From Nitrospirota bacterium (GTDB taxonomy: Bacteria > Nitrospirota > Thermodesulfovibrionia > Thermodesulfovibrionales > SM23-35): a stretch of DNA of 64,000 bases. Shown here in pieces: positions 49,042 to 49,829 of the stretch. Every line of letters starts with the position of its first letter. The stretch's first letter is position 1. The translations under genes were made by a program, and so were the position numbers. Under the pieces are notes generated by a model that was not told where the DNA came from, did not search any database, and saw nothing but the letters and a program-made list of their open reading frames with translations. Location: positions 7,469-71,468 of the forward strand of contig JBFLZS010000004.1 in NCBI GenBank assembly GCA_040756135.1, read 5' to 3'.

Positions 49042-49829
49042 TTTTCCACCTTTTGTAAGTCTTCAGGGGTATCTACCCCATAAGTTTCAAAAAAGGTCTC
49101 CTTTACCTTAATTTTCATCCCGTTTTCGAGAGCCCGCAATTGTTCGAGTTTTTCTATCTTTTCAAGTTCTGTTTGCTGCATATTAGCGAATGAAAGGAGT
49201 ACCTCACGCCTGTAACTATAAATTCCGATATGCTTATAACAGCGGAAAGCTTGGAGCTTAGAGCTTGGGGCTTGGAGCTCAAAAATACTTTCAAATTCTT
49301 TGCCCTTTGCCCTTTGCTCTTTGCTCTGAAGTTTCCACTTATCCCTGTTATATGGTATAGGCGCCCTCGAAAAATATAGTGCAAACCTCTCTTTATCAAA
49401 GACTACTTTAACCACATTCGGGTCTATGATTTCCCCCGGGTCTTCAATTTTTTTTACAAGTGTACCTATAGAGGCTCTTCTGTCGTCGAGAAGAGTAATA
49501 ACATCGTCAATCATTTCAGGACGTATAAGGGGTTCATCAGCCTGCACATTAACAATTATCTCATAATCCATTGATTTAGCAACTTCAGCTATCCTATCAG
49601 TGCCTGAAGGATGCTTTTTATCTGTCATTATTGCCTTGCCTCCAAAGGTTTGTACTTTTTCTAAAATCTTTTCGCTGTCTGTTGCAACAATTACATCGTC
49701 TGCGAGGTGTGAAAGTTTTGAATTATTATAGACATACTGTATAATAGGCTCCCCTTTGAGGGGGTATAAGGGCTTTCCCGGAAAACGGGTCGATTCATAA
49801 CGCGCAGGGATGATGACTACCGAAGTCAT
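49020..49829 (-). CDS. kdsB: 3-deoxy-manno-octulosonate cytidylyltransferase with repeat-derived internal insertion
   Basis: [26 protein letters not shown] and [10 protein letters not shown]. The extra roughly 27 codons lie between PIPYNRD and HIGIY. Confidence 0.9.
49248..49328. repeat. two adjacent 7-bp tandem arrays (AGCTTGG-like x~4.7; CTTTGCY x~4.4) in frame inside kdsB
   Basis: agcttgg agcttag agcttgg ggcttgg agctc .. ctttgcc ctttgcc ctttgct ctttgct ctg. The coding strand gives [27 protein letters not shown]. By my count the span is 81 bp. Confidence 0.9.

Follow-up and report, generated by a model that had tools for sequence, protein, structure and literature searches.

Tandem repeats with a seven nucleotide unit are known from several bacterial systems. 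One of them is the neuO gene of Escherichia coli K1, where the heptanucleotide AAGACTC forms a translational phase switch: It has 3–53 copies, and 65.6% of 64 genomes are in the OFF state (PMC13001214). Another is the family of TAACTGA direct repeats of Beggiatoaceae, Cyanobacteria and Bacteroidetes, which have one fixed unit and lie overwhelmingly just upstream of start codons; the copies found in coding regions correspond to protein termini or to hypothetical proteins (PMC4679880). The introduction of the same article, citing Mrazek 2007, mentions that long simple repeats with a unit which is not a multiple of three have been reported to avoid coding DNA. The present work deals with a stretch of 64,000 nt from a Nitrospirota bacterium (contig JBFLZS010000004.1), which we call the window, and with the heptamer arrays found inside the coding sequences of five of its genes: kdsB, addB, fabF, moeA and the gene of a TPM-domain protein. 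All coordinates given below are window positions, and L-numbers are labels of orthologue loci.

Other small repeats are also relevant. The short tandemly repeated repetitive (STRR) sequences of cyanobacteria have a few fixed units, which are used genome-wide, and they are predominantly intergenic. Rickettsia palindromic elements (RPE), said to have been described by Ogata et al. in 2000, are reportedly insertions of 100–150 bp of a single-copy type, stable between species. In Nostoc, small dispersed repeats (SDR) embedded in tandem heptameric repeats are said to have been reported by Elhai et al. in Genome Research in 2008; they comprise SDR1–8 and reportedly have a size of 21–27 nt. SDRs are also mentioned in PMC3116915. 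Coding palindromes, which are long perfect inverted repeats, are present in mitochondrial genes of Nematomorpha (PMC6649704). In the literature on heptamer repeats, we have found no description for Nitrospirae or Thermodesulfovibrio.

Coding DNA is expected to exclude repeats whose unit cannot be divided by three. This expectation fails across an environmental Nitrospirota lineage: Heptamer arrays form part of the genes of conserved enzymes, are translated with them and change much more rapidly than their hosts. We believe that these arrays are probably fast-evolving repeat DNA in structurally permissive positions of ordinary genes, and not regulatory switches.

Heptamer arrays within coding sequences

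Arrays were searched with Tandem Repeats Finder (TRF) over the whole window. An earlier note on this DNA had pointed out eight 7-nt arrays inside the coding sequences of the five genes. TRF confirms all of them, at most 1 nt away from where the note had placed them, with 4.1–4.9 copies each.

The kdsB gene, on the minus strand, contains two arrays. The 5′ arm array (49297–49327) is detected as TCTTTGC x4.4; its coding strand is (AGAGCAA/AGGGCAA) x4.4, translated as SKEQRAKGK. The 3′ arm array (49248–49279) is detected as AGCTTGG x4.6 and has (AGCTCCA/AGCCCCA)-like units x4.6 on the coding strand. The addB gene, on the plus strand, has two sites. Site 1 is a solitary array at 22261–22294, a perfect GCAATCA x4.9 which codes for AISNQQSAISN. 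Site 2 has a perfect AGTTCCG x4.7 at 23445–23477, coding for VPSSEFRVPSS, and a right-arm remnant, AAACTCGTCACTG, at 23488–23500, recognized in the DNA alignment of addB orthologues. In fabF, also on the plus strand, site 1 is more complex: a perfect left array at 32504–32534 (TCAGAAG, equivalent to AAGTCAG, x4.4, read as QKSEVRSQKS), a G/C-rich nested palindrome at 32535–32579 (AATCCCCC..CCCCCCTTTACTAAAGGGGGG..GGGGGGATT, in frame as NPPPPPFTKGGVGGI) and, on its other side, a degenerate right array at 32580–32604 (ACTAACT CCGAACT CTTAAACT..). Site 2 of fabF, at 32671–32704, is ACGCATC x4.9 and is translated as YASRITHHASRIS. The note had described both fabF arrays as ACGCATC-like, which is correct for the array at 32671; the unit of the first one is TCAGAAG. 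The moeA gene, on the plus strand, has a perfect AAGTCAG x4.1 at 40389–40417, read as KSQKSEVRSQ, and a G/C nested palindrome on the 3′ side of the array at 40420–40464, read as NPPFPPFTKGGLGEI, whose outer right arm is decayed. Finally, the TPM-domain gene, on the minus strand, has an array at 14044–14077, detected as AAGATAC/AAGATGC; the coding strand is (GTATCTT/GCATCTT) x4.9 and the peptide ISCILYLASCIF.

Among the periods compared, only period 7 is enriched in the window. Six strict period-7 arrays are observed in the window, against a mean of 0.02 and a maximum of 1 in 60 dinucleotide-preserving shuffles. A self-match scan of the window detects 0–1 strict arrays for each of the periods 5, 6, 8, 9 and 10. 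TRF also finds three more period-7 arrays, all of them intergenic, at 34589–34617, 39598–39628 and 39636–39667.

Pfam identifies the host proteins as KdsB (CTP_transf_3), an AddB-type PD-(D/E)XK nuclease, a KAS II-type ketoacyl synthase, MoeA fused to a PBP-like domain and a TPM-domain protein. Every host open reading frame (ORF) is intact and the arrays are read through; NCBI annotation also presents intact proteins, so the note was right on this point. The window FabF is merely named [quoted passage not shown] by NCBI, possibly because the insert lowers the family score. The hosts had been called essential genes, a label which does not suit all of them: addB, moeA and the TPM gene are not usually counted as essential.

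An array free of stop codons gives the same cyclic heptapeptide in any frame, because three units of 7 nt make 21 nt, that is, seven codons. Approximately 69% of the possible heptamers contain no stop codon in any rotation. Of the six strict arrays in the window, four are open in the observed orientation and in no other. Seven of the coding arrays encode polar peptides. The eighth, in the TPM gene, would form the hydrophobic core ISCILYLASCIF of a predicted signal peptide (MKNYFKF..PSAHA, with the boundary before LD).

A different type of repeat is found at 52534–52594, where a 21-nt unit is present 2.9 times with 95% identity, in frame in a 93 amino acid ORF (52404–52685, minus strand) with a weak KxDL match. 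We regard it as a protein repeat of the heptad type rather than as a heptamer array.

Reading frame in orthologous genes

KdsB and AddB of the window are identical to proteins of a Nitrospirota metagenome-assembled genome, and the closest relatives are annotated as Nitrospirota or Thermodesulfovibrionales. We have gathered two sets of 80 kdsB loci, one from species-representative genomes, with 14 loci from Nitrospirota, and one from metagenomes. Among 93 independently assembled kdsB loci, not a single one is out of frame. Twelve loci had been missed by the first motif search and were considered as possible frameshifted genes; this was rejected, as all of them are in-frame variants of the motif. 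The frame is likewise kept at every orthologue locus of addB and fabF which was examined.

Variable positions in the host proteins

In 120 KdsB homologues, the segment from PIP(Y/F)xRD to YKHIGIY varies, with protein lengths of 244–284 amino acids. The corresponding loop DNA ranges from 45 to 174 nt in the 93 loci. It consists mostly of period-7 arrays, whose units differ among orthologues, and the peptides of the loop are recognizable as translations of arrays or palindromes, such as SEIRNSKFEIRN, KEQRANSREQRVKS and TPSLTLPPRGGGQGWGG. In L008, L009, L012, L149–L152 and L160 a period of 8 replaces the period of 7, and the loop of Geobacter-type KdsB is non-repetitive. We also considered that loop lengths might differ only by multiples of 21 nt. 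This is not the case: The lengths take many values, therefore other in-frame insertions and deletions occur too.

The two kdsB arrays of the window span, with their spacer, 81 bp, as the note had counted. The 27 added residues which it proposed are too many: The window KdsB has 269 amino acids, 25 more than the 244 of the shortest orthologues, and the insert has about 18 residues in comparison with the solved structure 3oam. Similar comparisons give inserts of about 26 residues for FabF (4ls6) and about 13 for MoeA (1uz5). FabF site 1 is variable among relatives, whose proteins have 402–459 amino acids, and so are both AddB sites. The MoeA insert, of about 24 residues, lies at a tight turn which holds 1–4 residues in most of 42 relatives. 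The array of fabF site 2 adds just about 4 residues and mostly re-encodes a native segment. An AlphaFold2 model of KdsB, based on a 30-sequence alignment, has a mean predicted local distance difference test (pLDDT) score of 58.7, with the whole C-terminal half below 50; the insert is not placeable in this model.

Changes between orthologues

Three addB orthologues, 89–91% identical to the window gene, were compared with it in a DNA alignment. At site 1, one relative has a GCAATCA array which is split by 15 nt, and the other two have (AAGTCAG or AAGTCRG) x4–5. The units GCAATCA and AAGTCAG differ at 2 of their 7 positions, changed in every copy, with a similar copy number. Site 2 gives the same picture: (AGTTCCG) x4.7 in the window and (AGTTCAA) x4–5 in two relatives, with two positions changed in all copies. 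The right array of addB has 21 additional nt in L164, exactly three units.

Four fabF orthologues (L165–L168) were compared with the window gene. Site 1 contains only arrays in L167. In the window gene and in L168 it has the arrays plus the G/C palindrome, and the right array of L168 is 21 nt longer. In L165 there are arrays with a different central hairpin, and in L166 a different palindrome and no left array. Site 2 has 87 nt in all five genes. Its array is a perfect (ACGCATC) x4.9 in one of them, near-perfect in the window, decayed in two others, and with a GACTCNN unit in L165.

Three features stand out in these comparisons. Surviving length changes include three-unit steps: The two 21-nt differences lie exactly within the orthologue arrays, in line with the suggestion of the earlier note that the frame is kept in this way. 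Arrays are homogenized, a case of concerted evolution, at times at unchanged length. Finally, the junction of left and right arrays has been taken repeatedly by different palindromes. Since perfect arrays are present in genes which diverge by about 10% from their orthologues, homogenization would be more recent than that divergence.

The kdsB loop changes independently of the gene around it. The flanks of L126, L136 and L137 are 95–96% identical over 657 nt and their loops are non-homologous: L126 has a solitary AGCTAAG array, L136 has GGAAGT-type period-8 arrays around one palindrome, and L137 has another palindrome with AACTCGG arrays. L126 and L137 are collinear and 94–95% identical over about 10 kb, and the kdsB loop is their sole intragenic structural difference. 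Loops are equally dissimilar in the pairs L142/L151 (flanks 95% identical) and L157/L159 (93%). Between L081 and L092 (94%) there is an in-frame deletion of 90 nt, in which a conserved HRDEWK motif is lost. Loop classes are polyphyletic on the tree derived from the flanks. There are two deep classes, RDEWK..CYKH and RDLFSAE..ELLMFKH, and both are scattered over this tree, which suggests a cassette-like exchange or recurrent re-insertion. The replacement of loops may be due to recombination between strains, to ectopic conversion from other array loci, or to excision and insertion.

Hairpins and palindromes

The two kdsB arrays form an imperfect hairpin with a 7-nt periodicity (49236–49340, minus strand, 105 nt), made up of the two arrays, the 17-nt spacer between them and, at its base, a stem formed with flanking codons. 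It sits in the loop between PIPYNRD and YKHIGIY. The arms pair through GAGC/GCTC and GGGC/GCCC cores, with stems of 4–5 bp every 7 nt. The RNA fold has an energy of -39.7 kcal/mol, with z -5.2 for the sense strand and z -3.6 for the antisense strand; the DNA fold has z -2.2. Eight kdsB orthologue loops fold at z < -3, and several of them have differing units in complementary arms. The arrays of addB, of the TPM gene and of fabF site 2 stand alone and give no hairpin (z 0.27 for addB site 1). About 225 nt downstream of the addB site-1 array, at 22519–22546, a 14-mer which is present twice was considered as a candidate partner array; no local hairpin is predicted at site 1.

In fabF site 1 and in moeA, the arrays have the common unit AAGTCAG and are immediately followed by the G/C-rich nested palindrome. 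This palindrome belongs to a family, AATCCCCCC..CCCCCCTTTnnnAAAGGGGGG..GGGGGGATT, with at least 7 copies of the G6 type in the window, plus variants. It is open in two of the three possible frames, and each of these two is used. Five copies are located in ORFs: 25419–25470 and 26124–26175 in addA, 32535–32579 in fabF, 40420–40464 in moeA and 42927–42978 in a LysM/NlpC protein. All five translate as (N)PPxPP(L/F)xKGGxGG. In the Nitrospirota loci, 16 of 38 palindromes are within ORFs and 5 of 38 adjoin a period-7 array, against 1.2% at random positions, an enrichment of about 10-fold. Palindromes in or between heptamer arrays are found in fabF and moeA of the window, in kdsB of L081, L134, L137 and L135/136, and in fabF of L168, L165 and L166. 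The earlier note contained neither the pairing of the kdsB arms, nor the G/C palindrome beside the fabF and moeA arrays, nor the existence of hot spots with a fast turnover.

Two further paired-array hairpins are intergenic. The one at 34548–34625 has RGRGCNN in its left arm and CTTTGCT in its right arm, folds as RNA with z -5.2 and is directly upstream of a galT-like gene. The right arms of this hairpin and of the kdsB element are 75% identical (repeat family D18). The other, at 39590–39675, has GAAGTGA on the left and ACTTCCT on the right (RNA fold z -5.0) and lies between the genes for a histidine kinase and a response regulator.

The G/C palindrome also has intergenic copies, at 29176–29236 and 35643–35703. 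The regions which contain them, 29150–29242 and 35617–35702, are about 87–95% identical over some 90 nt, including the right flank TTTGAGGTATTTTCAG. This flank is directly followed by a start codon in both cases, the GTG of a nucleotidyltransferase ORF and the ATG of the glycogen synthase gene. To judge from the sequence, the palindrome repeat appears to bring a Shine-Dalgarno-like GAGG upstream of two unrelated genes.

Other repeats are also present in the window. Doublets of two related palindromes (CCCCTCTTTGCCAAAGAGGGG and CCTCCCTTTGGCAAAGGGAGG), similar to REPINs (doublets of repetitive extragenic palindromic, REP, sequences), are found at 16323–16446, 17180–17354, 19789–19923, 26800–26887 and 63721–63855. 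They have conserved flanks and are mostly intergenic, and the 135-nt copies are 87% identical. A 185-nt intergenic repeat, 98% identical, is located at 14767–14948, upstream of a radical-SAM gene, and at 31988–32168, upstream of fabF. It has an ATTCCC-N8-GGGAAT hairpin and inverted ends, CTGGATTCCC...GGGGAATCCAG, and therefore resembles a miniature inverted-repeat element; Rfam gives nothing for it. Two period-8 arrays are found in 5′ leaders: (ATAATAAG) x4.2 at 21012–21044, which runs into the ATG of addB, and (AAGATAAT) x3.1 at 32150–32174, upstream of fabF. A 60-nt AT-rich repeat, 95% identical, is present at 18994–19053 and 20664–20723, with one copy intergenic and the other inside a 114 amino acid ORF which has no Pfam match. 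The Rfam scan of the window gives no match on any repeat, its sole matches being two adjacent tRNAs on the minus strand, tRNA-Glu(CTC) and tRNA-Gln(CTG), at 12299–12451.

Distribution of the arrays

In 831 kb of Nitrospirota DNA, TRF detects 42 period-7 arrays, together with 16 of period 14, 6 of period 21 and 12 of period 8. The situation is different in 1.11 Mb from other phyla, where periods 9, 12 and 15 dominate and 17 period-7 arrays are found. Outside kdsB, 18 of 23 arrays are in ORFs, compared with a coding fraction of 0.875 (p = 0.2), so arrays are not excluded from coding DNA in this lineage. This runs counter to the general rule for long simple repeats, as it is given in the introduction of PMC4679880.

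Some units recur at unrelated positions. AAGTCAG is found in fabF and moeA of the window, in relatives at the two sites of addB, and also in L038; AGTTCCG is found in addB of the window and in kdsB of L134 and L137.

Period-7 arrays near kdsB are also present in unrelated phyla: L042, L043 and L070, which are metagenome-assembled genomes of Bacteroidales, and L025, from Omnitrophota. Some of them are inverted pairs. For example, L043 has CTTGAAC at 313–333 and AGTTCAA at 358–429. Heptamer-array hairpins may therefore be widespread beyond Nitrospirota.

Origin and evolution of the arrays

The explanation which we favour, fast-evolving repeat DNA in permissive positions of ordinary genes, involves two interacting classes of repeats in this lineage. 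The first class is made up of 7-nt (sometimes 8-nt) tandem arrays, either solitary or as left and right pairs, roughly reverse-complementary, which give a hairpin with a 7-nt periodicity. The second consists of the G/C-rich nested palindromes of about 45 nt, often placed at the junction of both arrays. Selection would keep only arrays with a total length divisible by three, a coding strand free of stop codons and a peptide suited to its site: polar in the putative surface loops and turns of KdsB, FabF, AddB and MoeA, hydrophobic in the signal peptide of the TPM protein. Within a site, arrays might be rewritten by slippage or by out-of-register templated repair; surviving length changes would be those in three-unit steps, and variant units would spread through the entire array. 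The contents of whole loops would be swapped between close relatives by recombination or by re-insertion of dispersed copies. The anatomy of the arrays, their frame, the positions of the hot spots, the 21-nt steps, the concerted change of units, the independent turnover of the loops and the lack of out-of-frame alleles are seen directly in the sequences. Slippage, conversion and mobility as molecular mechanisms, as well as the neutrality of the inserts, are what we infer from the comparisons described above. Some dispersal or ectopic exchange beyond local slippage is suggested by the shared units, the inverted arms and the association with palindromes. Mobility is proposed with reserve, since the window contains no mobilizing enzyme and the termini of the elements cannot be defined. 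The words “tolerated selfish DNA”, one of the options of the earlier note, come close to this explanation.

Several observations weigh against it. Among 49 window ORFs scanned with Pfam there is no transposase, no REP-associated tyrosine transposase (RAYT) and no reverse transcriptase, and neither terminal repeats nor target duplications are definable for the array elements. A set of 47 arrays falls into 36 unit classes, a diversity which fits local generation better than a single spreading element. Homogenization at constant length is difficult to achieve by single-unit slippage, because each step shifts the frame. The arms of the hairpins are complementary although their units differ among orthologues, which could reflect selection for structure. 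We should also note that the inserts appear to lie in variable loops and turns, their exposure at the surface being deduced from sequence alignments.

An explanation in terms of local instability, of the microsatellite type, would be simpler. Arrays would have arisen in place by slippage, with no dispersal, and swapped loops would be the result of homologous recombination between strains. The diversity of unit classes agrees with it, as does fabF site 2, which largely re-encodes a native segment, its last unit merging into conserved codons. Slippage also predicts the concerted change of units and the 21-nt steps, period-7 arrays are present in unrelated control loci too, and long simple repeats are most commonly heptanucleotides in the majority of bacterial genomes (Mrazek et al. 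2007, quoted in the introduction of PMC4679880). On the other hand, identical units are found at unrelated genes or in distant genomes (AAGTCAG, AGTTCCG, the CTTTGCY/RGRGC hairpin family), slippage alone does not produce reverse-complementary left and right arrays, and the arrays are associated with G/C palindromes. For these reasons we consider purely local instability rather unlikely. The opposite extreme is a dedicated process which repeatedly writes or swaps heptamer-array cassettes at fixed hot spots in housekeeping genes; candidates could be hairpin-targeted template switching or a system driven by a nuclease or a reverse transcriptase encoded elsewhere in the genome. There is room for such a process because unrelated loops are found in near-identical genes, homogenization takes place at constant length and arms remain complementary despite the change of units. 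We judge it unlikely; if it existed, it would be an undescribed mobile or self-rewriting element which tolerates coding regions, or a system for the diversification of loops. It is somewhat less likely still that the paired arrays are a selected nucleic acid structure, involved in mRNA stability, pausing or protein binding, or that the loops are adaptively diversified, instead of being neutral passengers. The hairpins are in fact strongly non-random (z about -5), their arms are complementary in several orthologues despite differing unit sequences, inserts are found at the same positions of the proteins throughout the phylum and intergenic copies lie directly beside the starts or ends of genes. 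However, many orthologues lack any hairpin, and at the corresponding site there is often just one array, a loop free of repeats or a deletion, in one case of 90 nt with the removal of HRDEWK, therefore no structure is conserved. Rfam gives no matches, and the hosts are cytoplasmic housekeeping enzymes with no evident gain from loop diversity. Mismatches between the arms, on the coding strand, are A.C in 27 cases and G.U in 8, whereas selection on the sense RNA would give the reverse; these events are non-independent, as they are repeated within arrays. The count argues against selection for a sense-strand RNA hairpin. Avoidance of T on the coding strand, where it gives stop and hydrophobic codons, is a better fit to this bias.

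Slipped-strand phase variation, in which a change of one unit would toggle the frame, was the other option of the earlier note. The unit length is not divisible by three, several arrays are perfect, and neuO offers a precedent with its AAGACTC repeats, whose full-length translation needs a copy number divisible by 3 (PMC13001214). The complete absence of out-of-frame alleles among the 93 kdsB loci and in the addB and fabF orthologues speaks against a switch, as do the 4–5 copies found here, compared with 3–53 in neuO, where 65.6% of genomes are OFF (PMC13001214). The hosts are also genes for core metabolism and repair. An on/off switch is thus very improbable. As for a sequencing or assembly artefact, the DNA comes from a metagenome-assembled genome, and mis-assembly of short repeats can happen. 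Nevertheless, arrays of the same type occupy the same gene positions in more than 90 independent assemblies (NCBI, JGI, ENA, Logan), and with about 30 nt they are well inside read length, which leaves an artefact a negligible probability.

If fast-evolving repeats do occupy permissive positions, their hot spots provide a natural map of the places where KdsB, FabF, AddB and MoeA tolerate inserts. The loops may also be useful as a marker for strain typing, as they differ between genomes which are 95% identical in the surrounding gene. The system is well suited to asking why slippage in bacteria favours a unit of 7 nt, how arrays are homogenized without a shift of the frame, and how small palindromes target existing repeats.

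Comparison with known systems

None of the known systems, be it STRR, SDR, RPE, neuO or the TAACTGA repeats, fits fully. The neuO gene shares with the window a 7-nt array within a coding sequence, the rule of three units and a heptapeptide for every three units. It differs in being a dispensable, phage-borne gene for surface modification which is mostly OFF, while the window arrays have 4–5 copies in housekeeping genes and none of the 93 kdsB loci is OFF. The TAACTGA repeats are also heptamer arrays scattered through the genome, with a minority within ORFs in a stop-free orientation. The coding arrays of the window, in contrast, lie in the interior of conserved enzymes and have diverse units.

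A resemblance to cyanobacterial STRR had been suggested by the earlier note. It is superficial: The period of 7 nt agrees, and the number of unit classes, the frequent location in ORFs and the Nitrospirota host do not. If heptanucleotide long simple repeats are included in the comparison, the common features are the tandem unit of 7 nt, its over-representation with respect to other periods and a presumed origin by slippage. The window arrays differ from both in being short (4–5 copies), with diverse units, often in inverted pairs and located in ORFs at the rate of the coding fraction, in a Nitrospirota genome.

Palindromes offer other parallels. The SDRs of Nostoc, which we compare by description only, are small palindromes nested in or between heptamer arrays, with nested and compound insertions, as found here. 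The palindrome of the window is larger (about 45 nt), G/C-rich and doubly nested, and is not known to be related in sequence to the SDRs; many of its copies, like the arrays, lie in coding sequences and are translated, and the phylum is different. The doublets of two related palindromes at 17180–17354, 19789–19923 and 63721–63855 recall REP sequences and REPINs, although 16 of the 38 palindromes are in ORFs. The Nematomorpha palindromes are likewise inverted repeats in coding sequences with both arms translated; they are not tandem heptamers and belong to animal mitochondria.

Rickettsia palindromic elements, again compared by description, share several features with the repeats of the window. 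Both are dispersed repeats which form hairpins, are inserted in frame in housekeeping genes and add an extra peptide at permissive sites, with the ORF and its domains retained. Homology with RPE families is unlikely, given the different composition and size. The elements described here are tandem heptamers, whose copy number and unit change, and which are replaced by others between kdsB genes with flanks 95% identical.

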